From: an uncultured Aestuariivirga sp.
Lineage (GTDB): Bacteria; Pseudomonadota; Alphaproteobacteria; Rhizobiales; Aestuariivirgaceae
DNA length: 64,000 nucleotides
Direction of reading: 5' to 3'
Assembly (NCBI GenBank): GCA_964474665.1
Contig: CAYYTH010000002.1
Location: 52,276-116,275, forward strand
The position numbers and the translations under genes were made by a program. Position 1 is the stretch's first letter; each line of letters opens with the position of its first letter. Below, in pieces: positions 4,698-27,191 of the stretch. Below the pieces are notes generated by a model. The model saw only the letters and a list, made by a program, of their open reading frames with translations, was not told the DNA's origin and did not search any database.

Positions 4698-4712
4698 AGG
4701 ACCCAGGGCCCC

Positions 4713-7558: not shown

Positions 7559-7559
7559 C

Positions 7560-7994
7560 ATGGCCCTGCCCGCAGCAGGCCAGTCGCCACAGGACGCGGT
7601 CACCGCCTACAAGCGCCTGCTCGCCGCGATCATCGACCGGCGGCCCTCGGGCACCCGCCAGCGGCTGGCCACGGCACTTGCCAAGAACCGCAGCTTCGTC
7701 AGCCAGATCACCAATCCAGCCTATCCGACGCCGATCCCGGCGAGCCATCTCGCGCAGATCTTCGAGGTCTGCCACTTCTCGGGGCCCGAGCGGCAGGAGT
7801 TCACCAGGCTCTATACCCGGGCGCACCCGAAGAAGATGCTGGCCGAGAGCCCCACGCGCATGGCGGCGGCGGTGGATTTGCCCGACCTCGGTGACGAGAC
7901 GAAGAACCGGAAACTGCACGGGCTGGTCAGCGCCTTCGTGCGGGACATTGCAAGGCTGATCGAGGATGATCGCGAGAAAGGGAAACGGCGATGA
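7560..7994 (+). CDS. Hypothetical protein with XRE-like helix-turn-helix
   Basis: ATG 1 bp after the EI stop; stop overlaps the dhaK start (ATGA). RQRLATALAKNRSFVSQITNP resembles an HTH. GC-rich codon usage like its neighbours. Confidence 0.75.
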   Translation: MALPAAGQSPQDAVTAYKRLLAAIIDRRPSGTRQRLATALAKNRSFVSQITNPAYPTPIPASHLAQIFEVCHFSGPERQEFTRLYTRAHPKKMLAESPTRMAAAVDLPDLGDETKNRKLHGLVSAFVRDIARLIEDDREKGKRR

Positions 7995-8970
7995 AGAAGC
8001 TCATCAACGACGTGTCGAACGTGCTGACCGAAAGCCTCGACGGCTTCGTGGCGGCCCATGGCGACATCATCACGCTCGGGGCCGAGCACAAGTTCGTGCA
8101 GCGCAGGGTGCTGAAGCCCGGCAAGGTGGCGCTGCTGTCGGGCGGCGGGTCCGGCCATGAACCGCTGCACGCAGGCTTCGTCGGCCACGGCATGCTTGAT
8201 GCCGCCTGCCCCGGCCAAGTCTTCACCTCGCCCACGCCCGACCAGATGATCGCCGCCGCCGAGGCCGTCGATACGGGCGCGGGCGTGCTGTTCATCGTCA
8301 AGAATTACGAGGGCGACGTCATGAACTTCGACATGGCGCGCGAGATGGCGGGGCGCGACATCGAGACGGTCATCACCGATGACGACGTCGCCGTCGAGAA
8401 TTCGCTCTACACCACCGGCCGCCGCGGCGTCGCCGGCACGCTGGTGGTCGAGAAGGTGGTGGGTGCCGCCGCCGAGCAGGGCGCCGGCCTCGCCTCGCTG
8501 AAGGCGCTGGGCGACAAGGTGAACCGCGCCACGCGCTCGATGGGCGTGGCGCTGACGAGCTGCACCGTGCCCGCCGCAGGCAAGCCCACCTTCGACATCG
8601 GGCCGGCCGACATGGAAATGGGCGTCGGCATCCACGGTGAGCCCGGCCGCCGCCGCGTGACCTTGCGCTCGGCCGACGAGATCGCCGAGGAGATGGTCGC
8701 CGCCATCGCGGGCGACCTCGGGGCGAAAGGCAATGCGCTGCTCTTCGTCAACGGCTTCGGCGGCACGCCGGCGATGGAACTCTACCTCATGTATAATTCC
8801 GCCCGGGCGCAGCTCGCCAAGCACGGCATCACGCCGGTGCGCGCGCTGGTGGGAAGCTACGTCACCTCGCTCGACATGGCGGGCTGTTCGATCACCGTCA
8901 CCCTGCTCGACGACGAGATCGCCAGGGGCTGGGACGCACCGGTGCACACCCCGGCGCTGCGCTGGGGCCT

Positions 8971-8974
<4 letters not shown>
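7991..8974 (+). CDS. dhaK: Dihydroxyacetone kinase substrate-binding subunit DhaK
   Basis: MKKLIN, SGGGSGHEPLHAGFVG, VKNYEGD, GRRGVAG, GIHGEPG, TSLDMAG. Confidence 0.97.
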
Positions 8975-10371
<1,397 letters not shown>

Positions 10372-10492
10372 CAAAGCTCCCATTTTGCCGTTGCCCGTTG
10401 CCGGGACTGAGGTTTGCGGATAATTGAATCATAGGATGGAACGAGGCTTGCCGCCCGTGAAATCGGCGCAAGACTCCCACCCCCGGACATGC

Positions 10493-10963
10493 ATGGACCA
10501 CACCCGACCCGAGCCCCGGCCAGACGGCCGCCAGTCCGCCACCGCGCTGATGATCCAGCGCGGGGTGGCGCGGCTGCTGCGCGCCGCAAGCTTCGCGGTG
10601 CTGCCGGAGTTCACGCTGGCCTCGGGCCGGCGCGCCGACATCATGGCGATCTCGGATGCGGGCGAGATCTGGATCGTCGAGATCAAGTCCTCGCCCGAGG
10701 ACTTCCGCAGCGATGCCAAGTGGCCGGAATACCGCGACTGGTGCGACCGGCTGTTCTTCGCCATTTCGACGGAGATGGCACCCGAGATGATGCCTGGCGA
10801 TGCCGGCCTCATCGTCGCCGACAGCTGGGGCGCCGACATCCTGCGCCATATCGACGCGAGCCCGCTGCATGCTGCACGGCGCAAGTCGGTGACGCTGGCC
10901 TTCGCGCGGGCCGCGGCGCTCCGCCTGCACGGGCTCTACGACCCGTTGGCCGAAACGCTCTGA
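10493..10963 (+). CDS. mmcB: MmcB family DNA repair protein (PD-(D/E)XK-like)
   Basis: EFTLASGRRAD, WIVEIKSSPEDFRSDAKWPEYRDWCDRLFFA; start uncertain (10424/10436/10493). Confidence 0.85.
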   Translation: MDHTRPEPRPDGRQSATALMIQRGVARLLRAASFAVLPEFTLASGRRADIMAISDAGEIWIVEIKSSPEDFRSDAKWPEYRDWCDRLFFAISTEMAPEMMPGDAGLIVADSWGADILRHIDASPLHAARRKSVTLAFARAAALRLHGLYDPLAETL

Positions 10964-11509
10964 TTACTTGGGAGCGCGTTTCGCCAGGATGCGCTGCAGC
11001 GTGCGGCGATGCATGTTGAGGCGGCGCGCCGTCTCGGACACATTGCGGTTGCAGAGCTCGTAGACGCGCTGGATGTGTTCCCAGCGCACGCGGTCAGCCG
11101 ACATTGGGTTATCCGGCAGCGCGGCGCGCGTGTCGGTGTCGCCCACCAGCGCGGCATGCACGGCATCGGCATCGGCGGGCTTCGCCAGATAGTCGATGGC
11201 GCCGAGCTTCACCGCCGTCACGGCCGTTGCGATGTTGCCATAGCCCGTCAGCACCACGGCGCGCGCTTCGGGGCGCGCCTGGTGCAAGGCCTCGATCACG
11301 TCGAGGCCATTGCCGTCGGCCAGCCGCAGATCCACCACGGCAAAGGACGGCGCGGAGCGTTTCACATGGGCGACGCCCTCGGCCACCGATTCCGCCATCA
11401 GCACTTCGAAGCCGCGGGTTTCCATGGCCCGGGCGAGGCGCGTCAGGAAGGGCTTGTCGTCATCGACGAGCAACAGGGTCTTCTCGGCGGGGATCACGGG
11501 GTGTGTCAT
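10964..11509 (-). CDS. regA: RegA/PrrA/ActR response regulator
   Basis: LLLVDDD receiver; PMSADRVRWEHIQRVYELCNRNVSETARRLNMHRRTLQRILAKRAP. Confidence 0.97.
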   Translation of the reverse strand: MTHPVIPAEKTLLLVDDDKPFLTRLARAMETRGFEVLMAESVAEGVAHVKRSAPSFAVVDLRLADGNGLDVIEALHQARPEARAVVLTGYGNIATAVTAVKLGAIDYLAKPADADAVHAALVGDTDTRAALPDNPMSADRVRWEHIQRVYELCNRNVSETARRLNMHRRTLQRILAKRAPK

Positions 11510-11604
11510 TCAGGCGCGGCCTGTGTCTACTCGGGGTTACGCGTTGTTACTCAGGACTCTCTAGCCCGTCAGGAGCACGGGTTCAAACACTTCCCGATAC
11601 GCAA

Positions 11605-12954
11605 TCAGCTCCGCCCGAGATCAACGACGGCCCGCGGCCAGACGACATGCACCACCGCGCCGTGTTCCGGCGTCGGCCGGTTGGCCAGCGACACCGTGGC
11701 GCCGGAGCGCTCCAGCAGCGTCTTGGCGATGAAGAATCCGAGGCCCATTCCCTCATGCTGTCCGGCCTCGCCGCTGTCCTCGCCATAGCCGGGCCTCGTC
11801 GTCACGAAGGGGTCGCCCAGCCGGTCGAAGACATTCTCGTGGAAACCCGGGCCATCGTCGCGAACGGTGATCGAGACCTGGCCCGGCGTCCAGCGCGCAT
11901 CGACCTCCACGCGCGCTGCAGCGAAATCAACGGCATTCTCCAGCAGGTTGCCTAGCCCATAGGTAATGGCGGGGTTGCGCCGGAAAACCGGCTCGCTGCC
12001 AAGCGCCCGGTCATCGAGATCGGCCGAACTCGTCACCGCGATCACCACGTCCGAGCCGCGCAGCGGCGCCACCAGGTCCTCGATCATGGCGAGGATGGCC
12101 GTGCGCTGGTACATCTCGTCGGTCTGTGCCTCGCGGTTGGCGAGCCTCGCCAGGATCTCGCGGCAGCGCGCCGTCTGGCTGATGAGGAGGTCGATATCCT
12201 CCGTATGCGGAGCATCTTTCGGCATCTCCCGCTTCAGCTCCTTGGCGACGAGCGCGATGGTGGCGAGCGGTGTTCCCAGCTCATGCGCGGCGGCCGCTGC
12301 CATGCCGTCGAGTGCGGAGAGCCGCTGCTCGCGCGCCAGCACCAATTCCGTGGCGGAAAGAGCCGCCGACATCTGCCGTGCCTCGTCGGCGATGCGCCGG
12401 GCATAGATCGCCGAGAACACGACGCCGCAGATGATCGCCGCCCACATGCCGCCGACATAGGCGTCCGGCAGCTCGAAGCGCTCGCCGGGAAGCCAGGGCA
12501 GCGGAAAGTGGCGGAAGGCCAGGAAGGTGGCGCAGGCGAAGGCCAGAAGACCGAGCCACAGCGTCCAGCGGTTGGGCAGCGACGTGGCGGAGATGGTGAC
12601 GGGCACCAGGAACAGGAAGGAGAAGGGATTTTCCAGTCCACCCGTCAGGAACAGCAGCACCGCAAGCTGGATCACGTCATAGACAAGCAGCAGGCCTGCA
12701 TGCGTCTCGTGCAGCCGCACGCTCTTGCGCCAGCGAATGGTGAGGAAGATGTTGAGCCAGGCCGAGAGCGCGATGACGCTGAGGCAGAGGCCCAGCGGCA
12801 GCGGGAACCCGAGCACGAAATGCACCCCCAGCACCGCGCCCGCCTGCCCCACGATGGCAAGCCAGCGCAGGCGGACGAGCGTCCTCAGCCGCAACATGCC
12901 GATTTCGGCGCCGGTCGCTGCCGGCCTGGGGTCGATGGCAAGGTTCTGCGGCAT
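11605..12954 (-). CDS. regB: RegB/PrrB/ActS redox-sensing histidine kinase
   Basis: LRLRTLVRLRWLAI, GGLENPF quinone-binding motif, AAAAHELGTPLATI, QTARCR redox Cys, GMGLGFFIA; start inferred at 12954. Confidence 0.95.
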   Translation of the reverse strand: MPQNLAIDPRPAATGAEIGMLRLRTLVRLRWLAIVGQAGAVLGVHFVLGFPLPLGLCLSVIALSAWLNIFLTIRWRKSVRLHETHAGLLLVYDVIQLAVLLFLTGGLENPFSFLFLVPVTISATSLPNRWTLWLGLLAFACATFLAFRHFPLPWLPGERFELPDAYVGGMWAAIICGVVFSAIYARRIADEARQMSAALSATELVLAREQRLSALDGMAAAAAHELGTPLATIALVAKELKREMPKDAPHTEDIDLLISQTARCREILARLANREAQTDEMYQRTAILAMIEDLVAPLRGSDVVIAVTSSADLDDRALGSEPVFRRNPAITYGLGNLLENAVDFAAARVEVDARWTPGQVSITVRDDGPGFHENVFDRLGDPFVTTRPGYGEDSGEAGQHEGMGLGFFIAKTLLERSGATVSLANRPTPEHGAVVHVVWPRAVVDLGRS

Positions 12955-13045
12955 GCGATCCTGTGTCGTCGGAATTCCCAGAGGGTTCCAGTTGAGTCCG
13001 GCACAGTCTAGACATATGTGCAGGTGGATTGAAGGAAGAAGACAG

Positions 13046-13654
13046 ATGCCGCGCCGCCCGATCCTCATCCTCGCCGCTCTCATCCTGCTCATCGCCGCGG
13101 GGATCGGCAGCTATGCCTACATGAATCGCGGGCTGCATGGGCCGCAGGGCTCCGGCGTGGCCCTCGTCGGCGGCCCCTTTTCGCTGGTCGACCAGGATGG
13201 CCGCCGCGTCACCGAGAAGGACTTCCGCGGCAGGTACATGCTGGTCTTCTTCGGCTATACCTACTGCCCTGACGTGTGCCCCACCGAACTGCAGGTGATG
13301 ACGGCAGCCCTCGACCAGCTCGGCGCGGAGGCTGACCGCATCCAGCCGGTTTTCGTGTCGGTCGACCCGGCGCGTGACACGCCGGAGGTGCTCAAGGCCT
13401 ATGTCGGCAACTTCGGGCCGCGCCTCGTCGGCCTCACCGGAACGCCGGAGGAGGTGGCCGCCATCGCCAAGGCCTACCGCGTCTACTATGCCAAGGCCGG
13501 CGGCAGCAGTTCGTCCACGGACTATCTGATGGACCACTCCAGCATCATCTACCTGATGGGTCCCGACGGGCGCTTCGTAAAGCACATGCCCTACACCACG
13601 GACGCCGCAAAACTCGCAGCGGAACTGAAGGAAACACTTAGAACTTCCCCCTAA
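13046..13654 (+). CDS. senC: SCO1/SenC copper chaperone
   Basis: FFGYTYCPDVCPTEL (CxxxC), DYLMDHS, N-terminal TM segment. Confidence 0.93.
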   Translation: MPRRPILILAALILLIAAGIGSYAYMNRGLHGPQGSGVALVGGPFSLVDQDGRRVTEKDFRGRYMLVFFGYTYCPDVCPTELQVMTAALDQLGAEADRIQPVFVSVDPARDTPEVLKAYVGNFGPRLVGLTGTPEEVAAIAKAYRVYYAKAGGSSSSTDYLMDHSSIIYLMGPDGRFVKHMPYTTDAAKLAAELKETLRTSP

Positions 13655-13727
13655 AGTCTAGAAATGACGGGTTGCCCCGAGTCAGGGGAGTTGCTACCGT
13701 CACGCGTTAACGAGGGGTTTCCCGGTT

Positions 13728-15002
13728 GTGCTGTATTATCTTTACGAGATGAACCATGCGGCCCTTGCACCCTGGCGTGCAGCGGCTGATGCGGGCCTGA
13801 ACTTCTGGCGCAGCCCCGCCAACCCCTTTGCCGAGACGCAGTTCGCCCGCTCCTTCGCGGCCTCGCTCGAACTCTTCGAGCGCACCACCCGCCGTTACGG
13901 CAAGCCGCCCTTCGAGATCCACGACGTCATCGTCGGCGACGACATCGTTCCGGTCGAGGAACGCAACGTCCTGTCGAAGCCCTTCTGCACACTCGTCAAC
14001 TTCGAGAAGCAGTGGGAGAAGCCGCAGAAGCAGCACAAGCTGCTGATCGTCGCGCCCATGTCTGGCCACTACGCCACGCTGCTGCGCGGCACGGTGGAGT
14101 CCATGCTTCCCCATTATGACACCTACATCACGGACTGGATCGACGCGCGCAGCGTCCCGATGTCCCAGGGTGGCTTCGACCTCGATGACTACGTCGACTA
14201 TGTCACCGAGTTCCTGCAGTTCCTCGGCCCCGATACCAGCGTGATGGCGGTGTGCCAGCCCTCCGTGCCGGTGATGGCCGCCGTGTCGCTGATGAATGCC
14301 CAGGAGGATCCTGCGGCGCCCAAGACCATGATCCTCATGGGCGGGCCGATCGATACGCGGCGCAACCCGACGGCCGTCAACAACCTCGCCCAGGAAAAGG
14401 GCGTCGACTGGTTCCGCAAGAATGTCATCATGAAAGTGCCGGCGCCGCATGCCGGCATGATGCGCGATGTCTATCCGGGCTTCCTCCAGCTCGGCGGCTT
14501 CATGACCATGAACCTCGACCGCCACATCGATGCGCATCGTGAACTGTTCTGGCACCTCGTCGAAGGCGATGGCGACTCTGCCGAGAAGCACCGCGAGTTC
14601 TACGATGAATACATGTCGGTGATGGACCTGACGGCTGAGTTCTACCTGCAGACGGTGGAAAAGGTCTTCGTCAGCCACGACCTGCCCAAGGGCACGCTCA
14701 CCCATCGCAACACGCTGGTCGATCCTTCCAAGATCACCCGCACCGCGCTGATGACCATCGAGGGCGAGCGCGACGACATCTCGGGCGTCGGCCAGACGGA
14801 GGCCGCACAGGACCTGTGCTGCAACCTCGCACCCGCCAAGAAGCTCCATCACCTGCAGCCGGGCGTGGGGCATTACGGCGTGTTCAACGGCTCGCGGTTC
14901 CGCAAGGAAATCGTTCCGCGAATCGTCGAGTTCGTGAATAAGAACGCCGATGATCGGACTGCTCAGAAGCCTTCAGCGAACGGTCGGGCCAAGACCGCTT
15001 GA
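13728..15002 (+). CDS. phaZ: Intracellular polyhydroxyalkanoate depolymerase
   Basis: APMSGHYATLLRGTV, AVCQP (Cys nucleophile), GERDDISG, GHYGVFNG. Confidence 0.93.
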   Translation: MLYYLYEMNHAALAPWRAAADAGLNFWRSPANPFAETQFARSFAASLELFERTTRRYGKPPFEIHDVIVGDDIVPVEERNVLSKPFCTLVNFEKQWEKPQKQHKLLIVAPMSGHYATLLRGTVESMLPHYDTYITDWIDARSVPMSQGGFDLDDYVDYVTEFLQFLGPDTSVMAVCQPSVPVMAAVSLMNAQEDPAAPKTMILMGGPIDTRRNPTAVNNLAQEKGVDWFRKNVIMKVPAPHAGMMRDVYPGFLQLGGFMTMNLDRHIDAHRELFWHLVEGDGDSAEKHREFYDEYMSVMDLTAEFYLQTVEKVFVSHDLPKGTLTHRNTLVDPSKITRTALMTIEGERDDISGVGQTEAAQDLCCNLAPAKKLHHLQPGVGHYGVFNGSRFRKEIVPRIVEFVNKNADDRTAQKPSANGRAKTA

Positions 15003-15699
15003 ACCCTCGCGGCTCCTCGTCGGCGACGAGGTGCTCGACGTCGTGTTCCGCCGCCACGCCCAGGCGCGCCGCCTCGTGCTCAGGCTGAATGCCACCGGCA
15101 CCGGCGTGCTGGTGACGGTGCCCACCGGCGTTTCGCGCGCACGGGCGCTGGAATTCACCGAGCGCTCGCGCAGCTGGATCGAGGACCGCGTGAGGGCCCG
15201 CGGCGGCCTCATCCACCTGGCTGACGGCGCCGCACTTCCGCTGCGTGGCATCGAGCATGACATCCGCCATGTTCCGGGGCGCCGGGGCGTCGTCACCGCC
15301 GACCCTGACCGCCTCTACATCAACGTGCCGGGCGACCCCGCCCACCTGCCGCGCCGCGTCCACGACTTCCTCAAGGCAGAGGCCCGCAACGACCTCGCGC
15401 GGGCGACATCGAAATACGCCGCGCTGATGGGTGTGAAGTTCCGCCGCATCACCATCCGCGACCAACGCAGCCGCTGGGGCTCATGCTCGGCCAGTGGCGA
15501 GCTGTCCTATTCCTGGCGGCTGATCCTCGCGCCGGACTATGTACTGGACTATGTGGCCGCGCATGAGGTGGCTCATCTCCGCCACCTCGATCACAGCCCG
15601 CGCTTCTGGCGCCTTGTGCTCACCCACTGCCCCAACGCCGCGCGGGCCAAGAACTGGCTGCGCCGGCATGGGCAGGACGTTCACCGCGTGGTGGTGTGA
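14950..15699 (+). CDS. M48/SprT-like (YgjP, DUF45) zinc metalloprotein
   Basis: IRDQRSRWGSCS, YVAAHEVAHLRHLDHSPRFW (HExxH). Confidence 0.88.
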   Translation: MIGLLRSLQRTVGPRPLEPSRLLVGDEVLDVVFRRHAQARRLVLRLNATGTGVLVTVPTGVSRARALEFTERSRSWIEDRVRARGGLIHLADGAALPLRGIEHDIRHVPGRRGVVTADPDRLYINVPGDPAHLPRRVHDFLKAEARNDLARATSKYAALMGVKFRRITIRDQRSRWGSCSASGELSYSWRLILAPDYVLDYVAAHEVAHLRHLDHSPRFWRLVLTHCPNAARAKNWLRRHGQDVHRVVV

Positions 15700-17975: not shown

Positions 17976-19511
17976 CTACATCATGGCGCCGACATGCCAT
18001 GGAACATACTCGTTGTCGCCATAGCCCAGCTCTTCCGACTTGGTCTTGTGGCCCGAGGCAACCTTGAGCATGAGCTCGAAGATCTGCTGGCCCTTGGCGG
18101 CGATCGAAACGCCGTCGAGAATGTCGCCGCAGTTGATGTCCATGTCATCAATCATGCGGTTGTAAATATCTGTATTCGTTGCGAGTTTAATCGATGGAAC
18201 GGGCTTGCATCCATAGGCGGACCCACGTCCGGTGGTGAAGCAAAGAAGGTTTGCACCGCCGGCAACCTGGCCCGTTGCGGCAACAGGGTCATAGCCCGGC
18301 GTATCCATGAAAACAAAGCCACGGCCGGTCACCGGCTCGGCATAGCGGTAGACATGGCGCAGCGTCGTGGAGCCACCCTTGGCCGCTGCACCCAACGACT
18401 TCTCGAGGATCGTCGTCAACCCGCCCAGCTTGTTGCCGGGAGACGGATTGTTGTTCATTTCCATGTTGTTACGCTTCGTGTAGTCCTCCCACCACTTGAT
18501 GATCTCGACCAGCTTCTCACCCACCTCGCGGTTGGCGGCACGACGCGTGAGGAGATGTTCTGCACCATAGATTTCGGGTGTTTCCGAGAGGATGCCGGTG
18601 CCCCCATGCTTCACCAGGATATCGACGGCCGCACCGAGTGCCGGGTTCGCAGTGATTCCGGAGTAACCATCTGACCCGCCACACTGAAGCGCCACGATGA
18701 GCTCCGACGCATGGCACGTCTCGCGCGTCACGTTGTTGACGTGCGGCAGCATCTCGCGAATGGCTGCGACGCCCGCTGCGACCGTTTTTCTCGTGCCTCC
18801 CGTCTCCTGGATCGTCATGGTTCGGAAGGTCTCGTTCTCAACCACGCCATAGGCTTCCTTGAAGCGCGGAATCTGGAAGCCTTCGCAGCCCAGCCCCACC
18901 ATCAGCACCCCGCCCATGTTGGGGTTGGTGGCATAGCCCCAGGCGGTGCGCTTCAGGATGTCGAAGATCACGCCGCGGTAGTCGACGACGCAGCCATTGT
19001 CCATCTTGAGCGCAACGATGCCATCGATGTTGGGGTAATCATTGAGCATTCCCGAGCGCTTCACCTCCTCCGCAATGAAGCCGGCAACGGTCGCGGAACA
19101 ATTTACCGAGGTGAGGACGCCGATGTAGTTGCGCGTCCCGACCTTGCCGTTGGCACGTCGGTAACCCTGGAAGGTCGCCTGCTGAGCGAGCGGCAGGATG
19201 TCTTCGGGCTTCGCATCCTGTGCAAAGGCGTAGTCGCGGTCGAAATCCTGCATGCCGGTGTTGTGCTCATGCACCCAGGCGCCCTTGGGAATGTCCTGCT
19301 TCGCGAAGCCGATGATCTGGCCGAACTTGCGCACGGGCTCGCCGGTCCTGATTTCAACCGAGGCCATCTTGTGGCCCTTGCCGATGCGGTCCAGCGCAGC
19401 GATGCCTTCCGGGGCCTGCGCTCCCTTGTCCACGGTATCGATGGCCACGAGGACGTTGTCAGCCGGTGAGAGACGCAGCATGCGGGGCGTTTTCGGCACG
19501 GTTGCAATCAT
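17976..19511 (-). CDS. UxaA/GarD family hydro-lyase (altronate dehydratase-like, SAF domain)
   Basis: GHKMA SAF domain, GKVGTRNYIGV, ALQCGGSDGYSGITANPALG, NNPSPGNKLGGLTTILEKSLG, FTTGRGS. Confidence 0.92.
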   Translation of the reverse strand: MIATVPKTPRMLRLSPADNVLVAIDTVDKGAQAPEGIAALDRIGKGHKMASVEIRTGEPVRKFGQIIGFAKQDIPKGAWVHEHNTGMQDFDRDYAFAQDAKPEDILPLAQQATFQGYRRANGKVGTRNYIGVLTSVNCSATVAGFIAEEVKRSGMLNDYPNIDGIVALKMDNGCVVDYRGVIFDILKRTAWGYATNPNMGGVLMVGLGCEGFQIPRFKEAYGVVENETFRTMTIQETGGTRKTVAAGVAAIREMLPHVNNVTRETCHASELIVALQCGGSDGYSGITANPALGAAVDILVKHGGTGILSETPEIYGAEHLLTRRAANREVGEKLVEIIKWWEDYTKRNNMEMNNNPSPGNKLGGLTTILEKSLGAAAKGGSTTLRHVYRYAEPVTGRGFVFMDTPGYDPVAATGQVAGGANLLCFTTGRGSAYGCKPVPSIKLATNTDIYNRMIDDMDINCGDILDGVSIAAKGQQIFELMLKVASGHKTKSEELGYGDNEYVPWHVGAMM

Positions 19512-19539
19512 ATGTCGACTCGCTTCAATGTTGCGGGGC

Positions 19540-19573
19540 TTGCCCGCGCTGTGAATATCGCTAACATGTTAGC
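19540..19573 (+). promoter_or_regulatory. Sigma70-like promoter overlapped by a palindromic operator
   Basis: TTGCCC-N16-TAACAT; perfect palindrome GCTAACATGTTAGC at 19560-19573 abutting the gntR ATG. Confidence 0.6.
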
Positions 19574-20305
19574 ATGTCAGCGGCGGCCGTCACCTATGAT
19601 TTCTTGAGCCCCGGCCGGGTTTCGGCCAGGGGCGCCACAGCCCGCGTCCACGGGGCCTTGCGCGCGGCCATCGTCCAGCTGGACCTGAAGCCCGGTGAAT
19701 TCCTCGACAAGCAGGCGATCGCCACGCGGATGGGGGTCTCCCGCTTTCCCGTCGGCGAGGCGATGAACCGGCTGGCGGCCGAAGGCCTGGTCGATGTCAT
19801 TCCGCAGAGCGGCTCGCGCGTCGCGCTCGTCAAGATTTCCGACGCACGGGAGAACATGTTCCTGCGCCGTGCGCTGGAGGTCGAGACGGTGCGGCGGCTG
19901 GCACCACAGGCCTCCACCTCCCTCACGGAGCAGCTGGCGCGCAACATCCGCTATCAGCGGGCGGCAATCGACGCAAAGGACCTCAAGGGCTTCCATGGCT
20001 TCGACCTCGCCTTCCATGCTCTGCTGCAGGACCACCTCGGCTTCGAGCGGGTGCGGAATGCAACCGAAACGGCGCGTCTCGGGCTTGATCGCGTAAGGCA
20101 GCTGCTCAACACACGCCGCCGGCTTGATCTGACACTCGCCGAGCACACGGCCATTCTCGCGGCCCTCGAGGCGCATGACGGCGAGGCCGCGGCCCGGGCG
20201 ATGTATAGCCACCTCGAGGCGGTGATGGCCGAACTGGAAACATTTGCGCGCGAAAGGCCGGAGCTTTTCGCGGATCTCAACAGCATGGGAGGACATGAAA
20301 CATGA
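19574..20305 (+). CDS. GntR family (FCD) transcriptional regulator
   Basis: LRAAIVQLDLKPGE...MGVSRFPVGEAMNRL wHTH; DLAFH FCD motif. Confidence 0.92.
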   Translation: MSAAAVTYDFLSPGRVSARGATARVHGALRAAIVQLDLKPGEFLDKQAIATRMGVSRFPVGEAMNRLAAEGLVDVIPQSGSRVALVKISDARENMFLRRALEVETVRRLAPQASTSLTEQLARNIRYQRAAIDAKDLKGFHGFDLAFHALLQDHLGFERVRNATETARLGLDRVRQLLNTRRRLDLTLAEHTAILAALEAHDGEAAARAMYSHLEAVMAELETFARERPELFADLNSMGGHET

Positions 20306-21327
20306 AGAAGCGCAACTTCAAGGTGCCATCGGGCGAGACGATTTCCTTCACCGAGCTGGGTTTCGGGACGGCTCCAATCGGCAATCTCTACAAGGCCGTC
20401 GATCCGGAGGAGGCGCAGAAGACGCTGGAGACCGCCTGGAAGGCGGGCATTCGCTATTATGACACGGCACCTCTCTACGGGCTGGGATTGTCGGAGACCC
20501 GCCTGAACCGGTTTCTGTTCGGCAAGAAGCGAAAGGACTATGTCCTGTCCACCAAGGTGGGCCGCCTGCTCGAGGTCTGCGATCCGAAGCAGCGGACCGG
20601 CATCGGCAAGTTCTTCGATACGCCGTCACGTCGTGAAATCTACGACTACAGTTATGACGGGTTCATGCGATCGATCGAGTTCTCGCTCGAGCGCCTTGGC
20701 GTTGACTCGATCGATGTCATCTTCATTCACGATGTCGACATCTTCAACCACAAGACCGCGGCGGCCAGAGACGCGCATGTGAAGACCATTCTCAACAGCG
20801 GCATCAAGGCACTCGACAAGCTGCGCAGCGAAAAGGTGATCAAGGCCTTCGGTGCCGGGGTCAATGAATGGGAAGTGTGCGAAACTCTTACCCGCAATGC
20901 TGACGTCGACATCTTCCTGCTGGCAGGCCGCTATACGCTGCTGGAACAAGAGTCGCTCAACTCCTTCCTGCCGCTCTGCGAGGAGCGGGGCATCGGCATC
21001 GTGCTGGGTGGCCCCTACAATTCCGGCATTCTCGCCACGGGGCCGAAGCCCGGTGCCTGGTACAATTATGACCCGGCACCAAAGGCCATCCTCGAGCGTG
21101 TGACGCGCATTGAGGCGATCTGCAAGCGTCACAAGGTGAAACTTGCCCAGGCCGCGCTGCGCTTCCCCATGCACCACAAGAACGTGGTGAGCGTGATTCC
21201 CGGTGGCGTGAGCCCCAAGGAGGTCGCACTTAACGTCGCGACCCTCGATGCCAAGATCCCGAAGGGCCTCTGGAAGGAACTGAAAGCCGAAGGGCTTCTG
21301 CACAAAGATGCGCCGGTGTCGCGGTGA
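20302..21327 (+). CDS. Aldo/keto reductase (D-threo-aldose/L-galactose 1-dehydrogenase-like)
   Basis: LGFGTAPIGNL, YYDTAPLYGLGLSE, LSTKVGRLL, YDYSYDG, LLAGRYTLLEQ, GGPYNSGILA. Confidence 0.88.
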   Translation: MKKRNFKVPSGETISFTELGFGTAPIGNLYKAVDPEEAQKTLETAWKAGIRYYDTAPLYGLGLSETRLNRFLFGKKRKDYVLSTKVGRLLEVCDPKQRTGIGKFFDTPSRREIYDYSYDGFMRSIEFSLERLGVDSIDVIFIHDVDIFNHKTAAARDAHVKTILNSGIKALDKLRSEKVIKAFGAGVNEWEVCETLTRNADVDIFLLAGRYTLLEQESLNSFLPLCEERGIGIVLGGPYNSGILATGPKPGAWYNYDPAPKAILERVTRIEAICKRHKVKLAQAALRFPMHHKNVVSVIPGGVSPKEVALNVATLDAKIPKGLWKELKAEGLLHKDAPVSR

Positions 21328-22262
21328 AGACGGCGATCCTCGGATCCGGCCTGATCGGCCGCTCCTGGGCCATTGTCTTCGCCCGCGGCGGACACGATGT
21401 CGTATTGTGGGATCAGGACGCCACACAGGTCGCAAAGGCGCAGGAACATATTGCAGCCACGCTGCCGGAGATGGCGGCGGCCGGACTGATTGGTGATTCC
21501 GAGGCCGTGCGCGGCCGCATCGGAGCGGCAACGAACCTTGCCGAGGCACTTGATGCCGCTGGCTTCATCCAGGAAAGCATCGCTGAACGTGCCGAACCCA
21601 AGCAGGAACTCTTCGCCGAGGTGGAGCAGCTTGCGCCGTCTGATGCAATCATCTCGAGCTCAACGTCAGCCATCATGCCTTCGATCATCTTCAGTGCATT
21701 GAAGACCCGGCAACGCTGCCTCGTGTCGCACCCTCTGAACCCGCCGCACCTCGCTCCCATCGTCGAGCTCTGTGGTGCAGACTTTACGGCGCCCGACGTG
21801 ATTGAACGTAGCCGCAATTTCATGACGAGCTGCGGCATGGTGCCGATCGTGGTGAAACGGGAGATCGAGGGGTTCATCCTGAACCGCCTGCAACTTGCCG
21901 TGCTGAATGAGGCATTCCGGTTGATCGCCGAGGACTATGTGAGCGCCGAGGACCTCGACAAGACCATCAAGGACGGTCTTGCCCTGCGCTGGAGCTTCAT
22001 GGGTCCGATCGAGACCATCGACCTCAACGCGCCGAACGGGGTTTCCGACTATCTCGAGCGCTATGGTCCGACCATCCGCCGCGTTGGCGACAGCCAGTCA
22101 GCCGCAAAGGCGTGGCCGGAGGACATTGGAATCAGGCTGGATGCAGAGCGGCGTATCTCGGTGCCAAGGGAGAGACTGGGGGCGGCCACCGCATGGCGCG
22201 ACCGCCGGATGATGGCACTCGCCGCGCACAAGCGTGCGCAGGAAAAGAAGACGCCGCCCTGA
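21324..22262 (+). CDS. 3-hydroxyacyl-CoA dehydrogenase family, L-gulonate 3-dehydrogenase (lambda-crystallin)-like
   Basis: GSGLIGRSWA Rossmann motif, IQESIAE, SSSTS, SHPLNPPHLAPIVE, GFILNRLQ, GLALRWSFMGP. Confidence 0.82.
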   Translation: MKTAILGSGLIGRSWAIVFARGGHDVVLWDQDATQVAKAQEHIAATLPEMAAAGLIGDSEAVRGRIGAATNLAEALDAAGFIQESIAERAEPKQELFAEVEQLAPSDAIISSSTSAIMPSIIFSALKTRQRCLVSHPLNPPHLAPIVELCGADFTAPDVIERSRNFMTSCGMVPIVVKREIEGFILNRLQLAVLNEAFRLIAEDYVSAEDLDKTIKDGLALRWSFMGPIETIDLNAPNGVSDYLERYGPTIRRVGDSQSAAKAWPEDIGIRLDAERRISVPRERLGAATAWRDRRMMALAAHKRAQEKKTPP

Positions 22263-22274
22263 GGCGGCGCTTTT
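22252..22274. terminator. Bidirectional intrinsic terminator
   Basis: CGCCGCC-CTGA-GGCGGCG followed by CTTTT on + and TCTTCTTTT on -; lies between convergent genes. Confidence 0.75.
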
Positions 22275-22281
22275 CGGATCG

Positions 22282-23070
22282 TCAGGCTGCCATCAGCTCC
22301 GGCGGCGGGGTCTTTGCGCCGGTCATGAATGCGACCGCATCGGACATGGTGAAATCCTTGGGGTTGATAACGCAAAGGCGCTTGCCGAGGCGATGGATGT
22401 GGATTCGGTCCGCTACTTCGAAGACATGCGGCATATTGTGCGAGATCAGCACGATCGGCAGGCCACGACGCTTGACGTCGAGGATCAGTTCCAGCACGCG
22501 GCGCGACTCCTTCACGCCGAGAGCCGCCGTCGGCTCGTCCATGATGACGACCTTCGAGCCGAAGGCTGCGGCACGCGCCACGGCGACGCCCTGGCGCTGG
22601 CCACCGGACAGGGTTTCCACTGCCTGGCTGATGTTCTGGATGGTCATCAGGCCGAGCTCCGACAGCTTGTCTCGGGCGATTTTTTCCATCGCCTTGTGAT
22701 CGAGCTTCTTCAGGACAGATCCCAGAAATCCCGGCTTCCGGAGCTCGCGTCCCATGAACATGTTGTCGGCGATCGACAAAGCGGGCGACAGGGCAAGGTT
22801 CTGATAGACGGTCTCGATACCGGCATTGCGGGCATCGAGTGGCGACTTGAAATGAACGGGCTTGCCGTCGAGCCTGATCTCGCCCTCGTCCGGCGTGACG
22901 GCACCGCAGATGGCCTTGATAAGCGTGGACTTGCCCGCACCGTTGTCGCCGATCACCGCGAGGATCTCGTTGGGATAGAGATCGAAGTTGCAATGATCGA
23001 GCGCCGTGACGCGGCCATAGCGCTTCACCAGGTTGCGCGTCGTGAGGATCGGTTCGACGGTGGTGGTCAT
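22282..23070 (-). CDS. frcA: Sugar ABC transporter ATP-binding protein (FrcA-like)
   Basis: GDNGAGKST, LSGGQRQ, VIMDEPT, single NBD. Confidence 0.85.
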   Translation of the reverse strand: MTTTVEPILTTRNLVKRYGRVTALDHCNFDLYPNEILAVIGDNGAGKSTLIKAICGAVTPDEGEIRLDGKPVHFKSPLDARNAGIETVYQNLALSPALSIADNMFMGRELRKPGFLGSVLKKLDHKAMEKIARDKLSELGLMTIQNISQAVETLSGGQRQGVAVARAAAFGSKVVIMDEPTAALGVKESRRVLELILDVKRRGLPIVLISHNMPHVFEVADRIHIHRLGKRLCVINPKDFTMSDAVAFMTGAKTPPPELMAA

Positions 23071-23102
23071 GACGTGTGCCCCATGCTCGAAGCGTTGCGG
23101 TA

Positions 23103-24188
23103 TCAGGTCGACGCCTTGCGAATCCATTGGTCGATGGCGACGGCGGCGATGATGAGGATGCCGACGGTGAAGTCCTGCCAGAGCACATCCACCTTTGAGA
23201 GCGACAGGCCGAAGCGGAACACGCCCACGATGATGGCGCCCAGCACCGAACCCACGATGGTTCCACGGCCGCCAAAGAGCGACGTACCGCCGATCACCAC
23301 GGCAGTGATGGAGTCCAGATTGGCAGTTTCGCCGGCGAGCGGCGTGACCGTGCCGCCGACGCGCCCGATGAGCACGAGGCCGGCGAAGGCGGCGATGACG
23401 CCGGCTACGGCATAGACCGAACGCAGGACCTTGTCGGTTTGCACGCCCGAAAGCATGGCACCGTTGAGATCGTCACCGACGGCATAGACATGGCGCCCCC
23501 ATGCCGTGTGCTTGAGCACATAGGACATCAGCCAAGCCAGCAGCAGGAAGGCGATGGTGCCGTAGAGAATCTGGAAGCCAGCGATAGAGATGACCTTGCC
23601 GAACCAGATCAGCAGCGGTGCCGTCGCCTCGGTATCGACGTTACGGATCGATTCCGAGCCGGAATACCAGAGTTTCAGTGCCTGGTAGATGTAGAGCGTG
23701 CCGAGTGTCACGATGAAGGGCGGAAGCCTGAGGCGGGTGACCAGCAGGCCGTTGATGTAGCCCATCACACCGCCCGCGAAGAAGCCGATGGCCATGGCGG
23801 CAGGAGCCGGAACACCCACCTGAACCGCAAGCTTGCCCATGATGATGGTGGACAGGACCATGATGGCGCCAATCGACAGGTCGATGCCGGCGGTGAGAAT
23901 GATGATGGTCTGGGCGATGGCAACGATGCCGATGGGCGTGATCTGCTTCAGGATCGTCGACAGGTTGCCGGGCTGGAATATCTTGCCGTCCGTGGTGAAG
24001 CCAAACAGGAGGACCGACAGGATGAGGACGAAGATCGGAACAGAAACCGGATAGGCCTGCAGGAAGATGCGGAGCCTTTGCAACGGCGTCACCTGCTCGT
24101 GGTCAAAGGAGGCGACCGCCGTGTCGGCCTTGGTGAGCGTCGCTTCGAAGTCAGGTATGGTTTTTGTCGGCTGACCGCTGTCGCTCAT
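23103..24188 (-). CDS. frcC: Sugar ABC transporter permease (FrcC-like)
   Basis: ILTAGIDLSIGA, LPPFIVTLG, GRHVYAVGD, VIGGTSLFGGRG. Confidence 0.85.
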   Translation of the reverse strand: MSDSGQPTKTIPDFEATLTKADTAVASFDHEQVTPLQRLRIFLQAYPVSVPIFVLILSVLLFGFTTDGKIFQPGNLSTILKQITPIGIVAIAQTIIILTAGIDLSIGAIMVLSTIIMGKLAVQVGVPAPAAMAIGFFAGGVMGYINGLLVTRLRLPPFIVTLGTLYIYQALKLWYSGSESIRNVDTEATAPLLIWFGKVISIAGFQILYGTIAFLLLAWLMSYVLKHTAWGRHVYAVGDDLNGAMLSGVQTDKVLRSVYAVAGVIAAFAGLVLIGRVGGTVTPLAGETANLDSITAVVIGGTSLFGGRGTIVGSVLGAIIVGVFRFGLSLSKVDVLWQDFTVGILIIAAVAIDQWIRKAST

Positions 24189-24210
24189 GTGCCCTTCCCC
24201 AGTGAAAACG

Positions 24211-24264
24211 TGCGGGTATGTTCCCGCATCGAATGCAGGGGGCGACGATATGGCCGCCCCCTGC
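24211..24264. other. Two intercistronic stem-loops between frcB and frcC
   Basis: TGCGGG-N6-CCCGCA (24211-24228) and GCAGGGGGCG-N10-CGCCCCCTGC (24235-24264). Confidence 0.6.
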
Positions 24265-24294
24265 GCTGTTCAACCTAGAAAATCCGCGCGGGCA

Positions 24295-25314
24295 TCAGCC
24301 CCAGCAGAGCTTCAGGCCCTCTTCCGAGGTGATGGAGGGCAGGCCCTCGACCGGCTTGTCGGTCACGAGCTGCACGCCGGTGTTGAAGAAGTCGAGGCCT
24401 TCCGAGTTGGCGGGCTTGCTGCCGTCCTTGGCGAAGGCCGCAACCGCTTCGACGCCCTTGGACGCCATCAGCAGCGGGAACTGCATGGAGGTGGCGCCGA
24501 TGACGCCGGCCTTCACGTTCTGCACGCCCGGGCAACCGCCGTCGACGGAGACGATCAGGGCCTGGGTTTCCTTGCCGGCGGCCTTCATGGCCTGATAGGC
24601 GCCCTCGGCGGCCGGCTCGTTGATCGTGTAGATCAGGTTCATGTTCGGCTCCTTGGCGAGGAGGTTTTCCGCCGCCTTGAGGCCGCCTTCCGGATTGGCG
24701 TTCGAGGTTTCGTGGCCGATCACGCGCGGGTCGGTTTCCGAACCCATGACCTTGCCGTTGGGCACTTCGATGCCGAAGCCGGTGAGGAAGCCCGTGTCAC
24801 GGAGAACGTCAACCGAGATGTTGTCCTTGTTGATGTTCAGCATGCCGATCTTGGCATCCTTCGCGGCGTCGCCCATCTGGGCCCGGGCCCACTTACCGAT
24901 CAGCACACCGGCTTCGAAGTTGTCGGTGGCGAAGGTGGTGTCGGCTGCGTCCTTGTCGCCGATCGGCGTGTCGAGGGCGATGACCAGCACGCCCTTCGCG
25001 CGCGCGTCCTTGAGGGCGGGGATGACCGAGTCGTTCGACGCGGTGATCAGGATGCCCTTGGCGCCCGAAGCGACGCAGTTCTCGATGGCTTCGATCTGCG
25101 GGCCGGCGTCACCGTCGACCTTGCCGGCGAAGGCCTGGAATTCCAGACCAATTTCTTTGGCCTTGGCCTCAGCACCTTCCTTCATCTTCACGAAGAAGGG
25201 GTTGGTGTTGTTCTTGGTGATCAGGCAGACGCCGTCAGCCGCGAGCGCGGGGGTGACAGCGAACACGGCGGTCGCCGCAGCGCCGAGCAGAGCAGCTTTG
25301 AAAAGGGTCTTCAC
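24295..25314 (-). CDS. frcB: Sugar ABC transporter substrate-binding protein (FrcB-like)
   Basis: Signal peptide; CLITKNNTNPFFVKMKEGA, ALDTP, ATDNFEAG, TINEPAA, VSVDGGCPG, SMQFPLLMA. Confidence 0.88.
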   Translation of the reverse strand: MKTLFKAALLGAAATAVFAVTPALAADGVCLITKNNTNPFFVKMKEGAEAKAKEIGLEFQAFAGKVDGDAGPQIEAIENCVASGAKGILITASNDSVIPALKDARAKGVLVIALDTPIGDKDAADTTFATDNFEAGVLIGKWARAQMGDAAKDAKIGMLNINKDNISVDVLRDTGFLTGFGIEVPNGKVMGSETDPRVIGHETSNANPEGGLKAAENLLAKEPNMNLIYTINEPAAEGAYQAMKAAGKETQALIVSVDGGCPGVQNVKAGVIGATSMQFPLLMASKGVEAVAAFAKDGSKPANSEGLDFFNTGVQLVTDKPVEGLPSITSEEGLKLCWG

Positions 25315-25439: not shown

Positions 25440-25482
25440 CCCTGTCAATAAATAAACCCGAATGATTTATTGATTGACAGGG
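25440..25482. promoter_or_regulatory. Putative ROK (FrcR) operator
   Basis: CCCTGTCAATAAATAAA-N9-TTTATTGATTGACAGGG (16/17 arm match); each arm contains TTGACA on one strand. Confidence 0.7.
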
Positions 25483-25533
25483 CTTGGCCCTGCTGGAAAT
25501 CTGAGCGCCTTCTGCTCAGGAAACGGGATTGCC

Positions 25534-26760
25534 ATGTCGATCGAATGGGCCAGCGGCACGCGCGGAGAGAGCTATCCCGCGCTTTCGCGCGGCACGACCC
25601 AGTCGGGCGTGCGGCTCTACAACGAGCGTCTCATCCTCTCGCTTGTCAGGCTTCACGGTCAGCTGCCCAAGGCGGAGATGGCACGGCTTACCGGGCTCTC
25701 CGCACAGACGGTTTCGGTGATCGTCCGCCAGCTTGAGGCGGATGGGCTCCTCCGGCGCCGGACGCCCAGGCGCGGAAAGGTCGGGCAGCCCCTGGTGCCC
25801 TTCGAACTCGACGCGAACGGCGCCTTTTCAATCGGCCTGAAGGTCGGCCGGCGTTCTGGCGACCTGATGCTGCTCGATCTCGCCGGCAACGTCCGCCACA
25901 CGATCCACCGGCCCTACACCTTCCCCTCACCGGCCGAAATGACGAATTTCGTGACCTCCGGCGTGGAAGAGCTTCTGTCCACCCTTGCGCCGGAACAGCG
26001 CGCGCGGATCAGCGGCATGGGCATTGCCGCCCCATTCGAGCTATGGAACTGGGCGGAGGATGTTGGCGCCCCCGCCGACGTGCTGATGGCCTGGAAAGAT
26101 TTTGACCTGCAGGCCGAGATTGCCAGGCTCTTCGCCTGGCCGATCCATTTCTGCAACGACGCATCCGCCGCATGCGCCGCTGAACTGCTCTTCGGATGTG
26201 GGCGAGACCTGCAAGATTACGCCTATTTCTATCTTGGCTACTTCATTGGTGGTGGTGTGGTGCTGAACGGGAGCCTCTATCTCGGCCGGCACGGCAATGC
26301 CGGCGCTCTGGCCTCCTTCCCCGTGACGTCAACACAGGGCAACTCCGAACAGCTGGTGCATTCCACCTCTTTGGCCTCGCTCGAGCGCGACATCCGTCGG
26401 GACGGCGGCGATCCGGAGCTCTTGTGGCGTGATCCCGCGGAATGGCGGGGCGCAGGCCCCGCGCTCGACCGCTGGCTGGCCCGCGCCGCGCTGGATGTGG
26501 CAACCGCCGCCACCGGCGTCATGGCCGTGCTCGACTGCTCAGCCATCGTGATCGATGGCGCTGTGCCGCTCCATGTCCGCATGCGCTTTGTGGAGGAGGT
26601 CCGCCGGGCGATCGCGCGCGTTGACCGGCAGGGGCTCGCGGAGTTCGCAGTCATCGAGGGAACGATCGGCGCGGCCGCCCGCGCTCTCGGGGCTGCCAGT
26701 CTGCCGCTGTTCGACAATTTCATCATAAACCGGAATGTCTTGTTCAAGGAAAAGGCCTGA
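25534..26760 (+). CDS. frcR: ROK family transcriptional regulator (FrcR-like)
   Basis: YNERLILSLVR...LTGLSAQTVSVIVRQLE HTH, RGKVGQP, CNDASAACAAE, YFIGGGVVLNG; start 25534 or 25474. Confidence 0.85.
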   Translation: MSIEWASGTRGESYPALSRGTTQSGVRLYNERLILSLVRLHGQLPKAEMARLTGLSAQTVSVIVRQLEADGLLRRRTPRRGKVGQPLVPFELDANGAFSIGLKVGRRSGDLMLLDLAGNVRHTIHRPYTFPSPAEMTNFVTSGVEELLSTLAPEQRARISGMGIAAPFELWNWAEDVGAPADVLMAWKDFDLQAEIARLFAWPIHFCNDASAACAAELLFGCGRDLQDYAYFYLGYFIGGGVVLNGSLYLGRHGNAGALASFPVTSTQGNSEQLVHSTSLASLERDIRRDGGDPELLWRDPAEWRGAGPALDRWLARAALDVATAATGVMAVLDCSAIVIDGAVPLHVRMRFVEEVRRAIARVDRQGLAEFAVIEGTIGAAARALGAASLPLFDNFIINRNVLFKEKA

Positions 26761-27191
26761 TGCTGAAGGGAATCGATCCGCTGTTGAGCCCCGATCTCCT
26801 GCGCGTGCTGCGTGCCATGGGGCATGGCGACGAGATCGCCATCGTCGACGGCAACTATCCCGCCGAGGAACATGGCAAACGGGTTGTGCGGCTCGATGGG
26901 CATGGTGCGCCCCGTATTCTCGATGCCATCCTCTCGGTCATGCCGGTCGACGACATGGTGCCGGAAGCTGTCTGGCGTCCGGCGGCCCATATGGATCCCG
27001 CGCGCATGGAGGCGGTATTCGAGGATTTCGACGCCGTACTCCGAAGGCACGAGCCAGGGCAAAAGATCGTGCCGCTGGTGGGTGAAGCTTTCTACAGCAA
27101 GGTGAGAAACTGCTTCGCCATCGTTGCCTCCAGCGAACCCCGGCTCTATGGAAACATCATCATCAAGAAGGGCGTGATCTACCCGGCATGA
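26760..27191 (+). CDS. RbsD/FucU family sugar mutarotase/pyranase
   Basis: MLKGIDPLLSPDLLRVLRAMGHGDEIAIVDGNYP, EPRLYGNIIIKKGVI. Confidence 0.92.
   Translation: MLKGIDPLLSPDLLRVLRAMGHGDEIAIVDGNYPAEEHGKRVVRLDGHGAPRILDAILSVMPVDDMVPEAVWRPAAHMDPARMEAVFEDFDAVLRRHEPGQKIVPLVGEAFYSKVRNCFAIVASSEPRLYGNIIIKKGVIYPA

Follow-up and report, generated by a model that had tools for sequence, protein, structure and literature searches.

What is a dehydrogenase of the 3HCDH family doing directly behind an aldo/keto reductase gene and opposite a gene resembling uxaA? The question was raised by a stretch of 64,000 nucleotides (the window) from an uncultured species of Aestuariivirga, a freshwater alphaproteobacterium. 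A uxaA-like gene is divergent there from a coupled series of genes (19574-22262, plus strand) for a GntR-type regulator, an aldo/keto reductase (AKR), and the dehydrogenase (HCDH). Named homologues also placed the window in Aestuariivirga, within the Hyphomicrobiales. The same arrangement had been described in an earlier note on this DNA, and it was confirmed by reading the open reading frames, the 62-bp uxaA-gntR spacer, and the two 4-bp overlaps directly (gntR/AKR and AKR/HCDH, the latter being GTGA at 21324-21327). The G+C content of the window was high, and one clear gene set was marked by third-position G+C. The protein family scan of the window covered up to 38 kb.

The locus is read here as the upper half, under GntR control, of a known non-phosphorylative aldose pathway, with HCDH as an accessory side branch, and the probability of this reading was put at roughly 0.55. 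The core is predicted to belong to a known type of pathway, the lower half of which is encoded elsewhere, and HCDH to be a lineage-specific, co-regulated accessory. The earlier note had proposed one linear route through all three enzymes; a single conserved three-enzyme linear pathway was not supported.

The Aldo/Keto Reductase and the Dehydratase

The AKR matched positions 1-287 of the 291 in the Pfam Aldo_ket_red profile, covering the full-length barrel, and its catalytic Asp-Tyr-Lys-His tetrad (D54, Y59, K85, and H143) was invariant. Its nearest solved relatives in the PDB were plant L-galactose dehydrogenases (E 8e-28). In addition, the gene behind the AKR orthologue encoded an Amidohydro_2 lactonase (L-fucono-1,5-lactonase family, cog3618) in loci L015, L017, L113, and L115, and a FucU mutarotase also lay near the orthologues of relatives in other genera. 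The AKR is probably an aldose 1-dehydrogenase that depends on NAD(P) and belongs to the L-fucose/D-arabinose/L-galactose type. An aldose 1-dehydrogenase had been suggested in the earlier note, and the lactonase and FucU genes in other genera agree with it; the non-phosphorylative route for a rare aldose proposed there was also the right frame, being of the fucose/arabinose/galactose type.

The dehydratase contained all three domains of its superfamily (SAF, GD_AH_second, and GD_AH_C), which spanned residues 18-508. It matched the GarD structure 6u7l with an E value of 1.6e-106 and scored 415 bits against the GarD model TIGR03248, below the cut-off of 730.85 for a strict GarD. Four cysteines (C138, C174, C209, and C277) were invariant among 7 homologues. 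Their spacing fits Cys134/173/208/276 of C785_RS13685, four conserved residues proposed as iron ligands (PMC6336799), when compared by position and not by alignment. A gene of the Martelella plasmid pMM593, 68% identical to the dehydratase, sits in a mutarotase/AKR/SDR/FAH cluster. Enzymes of the UxaA/GarD family dehydrate D-arabinonate, L-fuconate, and L-galactonate directly (PMC6336799), and the same dehydrations are credited to Watanabe 2019 (Mol Microbiol 112:147), as cited in PMC11199699. The window's dehydratase probably turns L-fuconate, D-arabinonate, or L-galactonate into a 2-keto-3-deoxy acid.

The C785_RS13685 cluster of Herbaspirillum huttiense (Watanabe 2019, Sci Rep 9:155; Mol Microbiol 112:147) has, like the window, a mutarotase, an aldose 1-dehydrogenase, a UxaA/GarD dehydratase with the four conserved cysteines, a GntR-type regulator, and a sugar ABC importer. 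Unlike pathways of that type, the window cluster has no lactonase, SDR 4-dehydrogenase, FAH hydrolase, or aldolase, and HCDH follows the AKR instead. The published framework runs through FucM, FucA, FucB, and FucC and then through FucH or FucF and FucG (PMC11199699).

As stated in the earlier note, no uxaC, eda, lactonase, or kdgK was found in the window. The sole Eda of the genome was encoded on contig C34, PfkB matches lay on contigs other than that of the window, and the best lactonase match was only 30% identical (contig C8), the genome having no close lactonase. UxaC had no match in the entire genome (98% complete), and the UxaA-like gene, with no UxaC alongside it in the genome, is predicted not to be the altronate dehydratase of the hexuronate pathway.

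A different use of the same enzymes would be a reductive uronate route. Fungal and animal reductases reduce D-galacturonate to L-galactonate and D-glucuronate to L-gulonate. If the AKR did so, L-galactonate would be the substrate of the UxaA-type dehydratase, and HCDH would act as a genuine L-gulonate 3-dehydrogenase. The stereochemical rules given below for both enzymes would be satisfied, the window lacks a lactonase and the genome a UxaC, and a UxaA-family L-galactonate dehydratase is mentioned in PMC6336799. However, the lactonase and FucU behind AKR orthologues in relatives point to aldose oxidation, the AKR's nearest solved relatives are aldose 1-dehydrogenases and not uronate reductases, and the adjoining importer is of a neutral-sugar type. 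Moreover, DUF1907 (3-dehydro-L-gulonate decarboxylase) was not found in the genome by a search that had no positive control. The reductive route is considered highly improbable.

The Lambda-Crystallin-Like Dehydrogenase

HCDH scored 406 bits against NF004783, above the cut-off of 347. The best solved relatives were the rabbit and human lambda-crystallin / L-gulonate 3-dehydrogenases (3ado and 3f3s; E 5e-63), to which residues 4-306 of 312 were aligned, the C-terminal extension included. The acyl-CoA dehydrogenase HADH was matched at about 1e-22 only, and the NCBIfam models of carnitine dehydrogenase gave 179 bits against a cut-off of 592 and 167 against 414. In the rabbit enzyme, Ser124, His145, Glu157, and Asn196 are catalytic and Asp36 selects NAD; the equivalents in HCDH (S115, H136, E148, N187, and D30) were invariant in alignment A1. 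HCDH is assigned by these matches to the lambda-crystallin / L-gulonate 3-dehydrogenase subfamily of the 3HCDH family, in line with the likeness drawn in the earlier note.

Accordingly, the closest described system on the protein side is CRYL1 of the animal uronate cycle, which shares with HCDH the subfamily, the full-length alignment, and the Ser/His/Glu/Asn set together with the NAD-selecting Asp. HCDH differs in being bacterial, in lying in a sugar-oxidation operon with no DUF1907 decarboxylase found, and in the motif after the catalytic His. A quick maximum-likelihood tree placed all island HCDHs in one clade (20 rows, 99% SH-aLRT) beside a radiation linked to BKACE, a beta-keto-acid cleavage enzyme; the clade includes a Rhizobiaceae locus reading CUT1 ABC-HCDH-SDR. 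Between this clade and the BKACE-linked group, 22 positions were fixed differently, many of them adjoining catalytic residues (118-123, 142-154, and 186), and the motif read NPPH in the island clade and NPPY in the other. Fixed differences so close to the active site suggest that the island clade may have changed its substrate.

Relatives of HCDH Outside the Genus

Outside Aestuariivirga, 67 HCDH loci (HCDH 47-54% identical) were collected from Mesorhizobium, Phyllobacterium, Labrys, Bordetella, Roseibium, Rhizomicrobium, and others, and none had an AKR or UxaA nearby. The operon there reads GntR / CUT2 binding protein-ATPase-fused permease-SDR-HCDH-BKACE-SMP30 lactonase. BKACE lay directly downstream of HCDH in 45 of the 67 loci, and no more than 7 kb from it in 56 of 94 family members. 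The HCDH-BKACE operon was widespread in Rhizobiales, Bordetella, Roseibium, Rhizomicrobium, and some Aestuariivirga; loci L044, L079, L080, and L091 and about 40 others are examples, each with HCDH at about 10001-10930. The operon resembles an oxidative sugar route whose last step is the cleavage of a beta-keto acid. No publication on such an operon was found, and the literature search gave no lambda-crystallin-type dehydrogenase described in a bacterial sugar operon or beside BKACE. The three-enzyme combination of the window had not been recognised as a described pathway in the earlier note; the combination of AKR with UxaA is a described one.

Two known systems resemble these operons. The oxidative deoxyribose/deoxyribonate pathway uses a sugar 1-dehydrogenase, a lactonase, an SDR deoxyribonate 3-dehydrogenase, and BKACE (Price et al. 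2019, mSystems 4:e00297-18; PMC6365646). The operons outside the genus have the same succession of 1-dehydrogenase, lactonase, oxidation to a beta-keto acid, and BKACE cleavage, and add sugar import; however, the 3-dehydrogenase of that pathway is an SDR and not of the 3HCDH fold, and neither BKACE nor a lactonase lies beside HCDH in the window. In carnitine degradation, L-carnitine dehydrogenase is likewise a 3HCDH-fold enzyme that makes a beta-keto acid for BKACE. HCDH differs from it in scoring far under the model cut-offs and in its context, which is sugar uptake and not betaine metabolism.

Regulation of the Operon

A perfect 14-bp palindrome, GCTAACATGTTAGC, was found at 19560-19573, directly against the gntR ATG, and it occurred only once in the entire genome. 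Every related locus with gntR had the site in its uxaA-gntR spacer, allowing at most three mismatches, in at least three genera (L112, L113, and L115 being from other genera); related loci without gntR lacked it. The gntR orthologues were 54-88% identical and held the same position in relatives. The palindrome is the probable operator of the GntR/FCD regulator. Because its position at the ATG leaves no room for a leader, the gntR transcript may be leaderless. HCDH is predicted to sit in a small conserved GntR regulon, since it would be co-transcribed behind this conserved, genome-unique operator; with a single genomic site, the regulon search gave no lower-pathway genes.

Co-Occurrence of the Three Genes Within Aestuariivirga

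The distribution was studied in a draw of 61 Aestuariivirga species genomes, many of them incomplete metagenome-assembled genomes, and an HCDH was counted as island-type at 62% identity or more. An AKR orthologue was present in about 47 of the 61, as was the module of AKR and UxaA-type dehydratase. Island-type HCDH was found in 10, directly behind the AKR in 5 of those, and about 37 genomes had AKR/UxaA without HCDH. HCDH is a sporadic, accessory addition in one genus, in about one sixth of Aestuariivirga species.

Rare co-occurrence of the three genes had been named in advance as what would count against the linear route. The result was largely of that kind: besides the 10 of 61 genomes of the genus, HCDH occurred with AKR/UxaA in none of the 67 HCDH loci and none of the 20 AKR loci in other alphaproteobacterial genera. 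The route in question runs from aldose to aldonate, then through C3 oxidation or epimerisation by HCDH to UxaA dehydration, so that HCDH would replace C5 oxidation and UxaB. Gene adjacency and shared regulation in the window speak for it. However, most genomes of the genus carry the module without HCDH, no reductase is present for completing the epimerisation, and a 3-keto-aldonate is not a known substrate type of this dehydratase family. Furthermore, no C3-dehydrogenase bridge is needed, because UxaA/GarD-family enzymes dehydrate the aldonate products directly (PMC6336799). It is very unlikely that the genes work in this order.

The region from PBP1A to ech/fpg was a plastic island across relatives. 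Ten AKR loci without HCDH consisted of PBP1A / UxaA / (GntR)-AKR-(lactonase) and nothing more. The window's order, UxaA / GntR-AKR-HCDH / FrcABC / ROK-FucU, recurred in at least nine species-level genomes, including A. litoralis KCTC 52945 (L029), whose HCDHs were 70-81% identical to that of the window. AKR and HCDH were contiguous, with an overlap or a gap of at most 12 bp, in the window, L013, L029-L034, L038, and L041. In a second clade (L015, L016, L017, and L036), GntR-AKR-lactonase was followed by a convergent deoC-ALDH-RbsD/FucU block and then by a stand-alone HCDH. A third form, L037, had GntR-AKR-CUT1 ABC-HCDH in one co-directional block, and in L014, L039, and L042 HCDH was the last gene of a CUT1 ABC operon without AKR. 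The binding protein of the CUT1 operons that end in HCDH (L014: 9568-13897; L037: 5005-10939; L042) was unusually long, at 492-536 aa, which hints that the HCDH substrate or its precursor could be imported directly.

Such variability could also mean that HCDH is functionally unrelated to AKR/UxaA, belonging to a variable sugar island and having come to lie behind the AKR through the loss of intervening genes. This would explain why HCDH stands alone in the second clade, divergent from deoC-ALDH-fucU2 and convergent with the ABC ATPase, and why it closes CUT1 operons that have no AKR; the adjacency of HCDH to the Frc ATPase is also kept in most arrangements, that to the AKR being variable. The island in question would hold the Frc-type importer, ROK-FucU, and, in relatives, DeoC-ALDH-RbsD for deoxyribose. 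However, a tight AKR-HCDH junction in at least nine species-level genomes, at 70-81% identity of HCDH, would be unexpected for an accident. L037 keeps AKR and HCDH in one block, and the Frc binding protein, found in 52 of the 61 genomes whether HCDH was present or not, shows no phyletic link to HCDH. An unrelated HCDH is a possible but rather unlikely explanation. One Aestuariivirga sublineage appears to have put HCDH directly behind the AKR under the same operator, and a lineage-specific functional link between the two is likely.

Candidate Partners Elsewhere in the Genome

The window island contained no BKACE, so that none adjoins HCDH. The genome had three BKACE genes, on contigs C5, C30, and C8, one of them 57% identical to an HCDH-linked BKACE; the C5 gene stands with a DAO-type oxidase gene. 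A FAH hydrolase gene, 60-63% identical to cluster-encoded FAHs, was found on C4 beside hisS/hisZ, and SDRs 56-59% identical to the cluster 4-dehydrogenases were also encoded outside the window, one candidate on C15 among genes for an amidase and a polyamine-type ABC system. None of the FAH, SDR, and BKACE candidates was near sugar genes, and none tracked HCDH phyletically.

On C17 (L139: about 3200-15550), a GntR-controlled sugar cluster contained a TIM-barrel isomerase-like protein, a Gfo/Idh/MocA oxidoreductase, a CUT1 ABC importer, a PfkB kinase, two SDRs, and a RhaM-like mutarotase; an SDR (56%) and the mutarotase resemble (59%) those of the Martelella fucose-type cluster. A second cluster, on C30 (L135: 1325-2095, 2106-3224, and about 3279-4154, minus strand), encodes a BKACE, an SDR, and a 3HCDH-family paralogue that shares 33% identity with HCDH of the window. 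The genes on C4, C15, C5, and C17 were considered as the island's lower pathway, and none was clearly tied to it.

Deoxyribose was considered as well. The deoC-like gene beside HCDH in relatives is a true deoxyribose-phosphate aldolase. In the window's genome, such an aldolase and an 809-aa ALDH stand alone on the 3.6-kb contig C72 (L025: 88-2517 and 2471-3460, minus strand), and the same pair lies between AKR and HCDH in the island of related species; the ALDH has a second, degenerate ALDH-like C-terminal half. A link between HCDH and 2-deoxyribose stays unproven, the C3 hydroxyl of 2-deoxy-D-ribonate being D-type and deoC/ALDH standing here on a separate contig.

The closest AKR loci outside the genus, in genus g56 (L112/L113; AKR 71% and UxaA 72% identical), read UxaA / GntR-AKR-lactonase-SDR, with a FAH hydrolase nearby. 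L115 read UxaA / GntR-AKR-FucU-lactonase-SDR, and Martelella pMM593 GntR-mutarotase-UxaA / AKR / SDR-FAH. From these contexts, AKR and UxaA are predicted to form a unit that is widespread and is accompanied by the canonical partners known from the published non-phosphorylative fucose/arabinose pathway.

In these nearest clusters, SDR and FAH hydrolase follow AKR/lactonase, no Aestuariivirga island has them, and HCDH occupies their position in the window. HCDH might accordingly be a non-homologous replacement of the SDR-type 2-keto-3-deoxyaldonate 4-dehydrogenase (FucF), oxidising the C4 hydroxyl, beta to the 2-keto group, after which an unlinked FAH hydrolase would split the 2,4-diketo acid into pyruvate and lactate, glycolate, or glycerate. 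The genomic FAH, with its 60-63% identity, would suit the last step; however, it lies beside hisS/hisZ with no sugar genes. Moreover, the module is independent of HCDH in the roughly 37 genomes without it, SDR orthologues are available in the genome, and the C4 hydroxyl of L-KDF and D-KDP is, by our own reasoning, D-type and opposite to the fold's usual specificity. The known L-KDF dehydrogenase also uses the furanosyl hemiketal form (PMC11199699). This replacement is regarded as decidedly unlikely.

A broader version would have HCDH define an undescribed lower branch, in which a 3HCDH-fold enzyme acts on either a sugar acid or a 2-keto-3-deoxy acid and, by oxidation, yields a beta-keto or 2,4-diketo acid that is open to C-C cleavage. 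The branch would have been grafted on the AKR/UxaA operon in Aestuariivirga, replacing FucF/FucG or FucH, and would exist as a complete ABC-SDR-HCDH-BKACE-lactonase pathway in many Rhizobiales. We regard this as a tentative and, on balance, doubtful proposal.

Proposed Function of the Locus

In the preferred reading, an accessory HCDH on a known pathway, the AKR would oxidise a fucose/arabinose/galactose-type sugar to the lactone. The lactone would open to the aldonate, by the cog3618 lactonase in relatives and spontaneously or through an unlinked enzyme in this genome. The UxaA/GarD-type dehydratase would then convert the aldonate into a 2-keto-3-deoxy acid, to be consumed by unlinked enzymes. 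These core steps are proposed because of family membership and conserved gene clusters. HCDH would open a side branch by oxidising, with NAD+, the beta-hydroxyl of a post-AKR sugar acid, and the resulting beta-keto acid would be cleaved by a BKACE or FAH-type hydrolase encoded elsewhere or would decarboxylate spontaneously. Our best guess is that HCDH, as an accessory enzyme, uses NAD to oxidise the beta-hydroxyl of a sugar acid and so yields a beta-keto acid, the identity of the substrate being a guess. The role is proposed because of the BKACE context of the family and because a 1-dehydrogenase (SDR or AKR) lies beside HCDH in both arrangements.

Several points weigh against this reading. 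The deoxyribose genes part HCDH from the AKR in L015, L016, L017, and L036, where HCDH has its own promoter region. The island encodes no downstream enzyme for the HCDH product, a C5-type BKACE occurs in 52 of the 61 genomes regardless of HCDH and so has no phyletic link to it, and the missing link to the Frc binding protein counts here too. Furthermore, the substitutions around the active site would bar a simple transfer of function from the BKACE-linked relatives. Stereochemistry adds a further point. We reason from what is known of the families that enzymes of the 3HCDH fold accept L-type beta-hydroxyls. UxaA-type dehydratases, again by our reasoning, take aldonates with the C2 hydroxyl left and the C3 hydroxyl right in the Fischer projection, the latter being D-type, and the C4 hydroxyl of the 2-keto-3-deoxy acids from L-fuconate and D-arabinonate is also D-type. 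If both rules hold, L-fuconate and D-arabinonate (at C3) and their 2-keto-3-deoxy products (at C4) would not be obvious substrates of HCDH.

Neighboring Importer, Mutarotase, and Coordinates

The sugar region extends to 27191 and lies between a PBP1A gene and an enoyl-CoA hydratase gene with fpg (Table 1). The HCDH stop codon is overlapped by a hairpin and T-run, GCCGCC-CTGA-GGCGGC-GCTTTT, before the convergent ABC ATPase gene. The Frc importer adjoins HCDH in most HCDH-bearing loci. Its binding protein was closest in the PDB to ribose/allose-binding proteins, and look-ups gave generic sugar matches only. At 281 aa, the ATPase contains one nucleotide-binding domain, whereas such proteins usually have a duplicated form of about 500 aa. 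A PRK09270-type, FrcK-like kinase comes after it in relatives (L017: 8364-8987) and is missing in the window. The mutarotase scored 94.6 bits against the L-fucose mutarotase model, under the cut-off of 141, yet better than against D-ribose pyranase.

Table 1. Coordinates of the genes and regulatory features of the sugar region in the window.
Feature	Position	Strand	Basis
UxaA/GarD-superfamily aldonate dehydratase (511 aa)	17976-19511	minus	Pfam SAF + GD_AH_second + GD_AH_C
Divergent promoter region with probable GntR operator	19512-19573	no strand	sequence read directly
GntR/FCD-family transcription regulator, first gene of the operon	19574-20305	plus	Pfam GntR + FCD
Aldo/keto reductase (AKR), probably NAD(P)-dependent aldose 1-dehydrogenase	20302-21327	plus	Pfam Aldo_ket_red
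Lambda-crystallin / L-gulonate 3-dehydrogenase-like, NAD-dependent beta-hydroxy-acid dehydrogenase (HCDH)	21324-22262	plus	Pfam 3HCDH_N + 3HCDH
Hairpin and T-run, probable bidirectional terminator	22245-22281	no strand	sequence read directly
Frc-type CUT2 sugar ABC importer	22282-25314	minus	Pfam, NCBIfam
Importer ATPase with one nucleotide-binding domain	22282-23127	minus	
Importer permease	23103-24188	minus	
Importer binding protein	24295-25314	minus	
ROK-family regulator	25474-26760	plus	Pfam ROK + HTH
RbsD/FucU-family mutarotase	26760-27191	plus	Pfam RbsD_FucU

Significance

The annotation of the locus gains at once, as the UxaA-like gene is predicted not to be the altronate dehydratase of hexuronate breakdown and the AKR can be named as a probable aldose dehydrogenase of the fucose type. 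Bacterial homologues of lambda-crystallin uniformly carry the database name "3-hydroxyacyl-CoA dehydrogenase". If the link of HCDH to the operon is functional, it would give them their first role in sugar catabolism and, if true, would mean that sugar-acid beta-hydroxyls are oxidised by a third enzyme fold besides the SDR types. The HCDH-BKACE-SDR-SMP30 operon, which is far more widespread, is a clearer target for enzyme discovery than the window itself.

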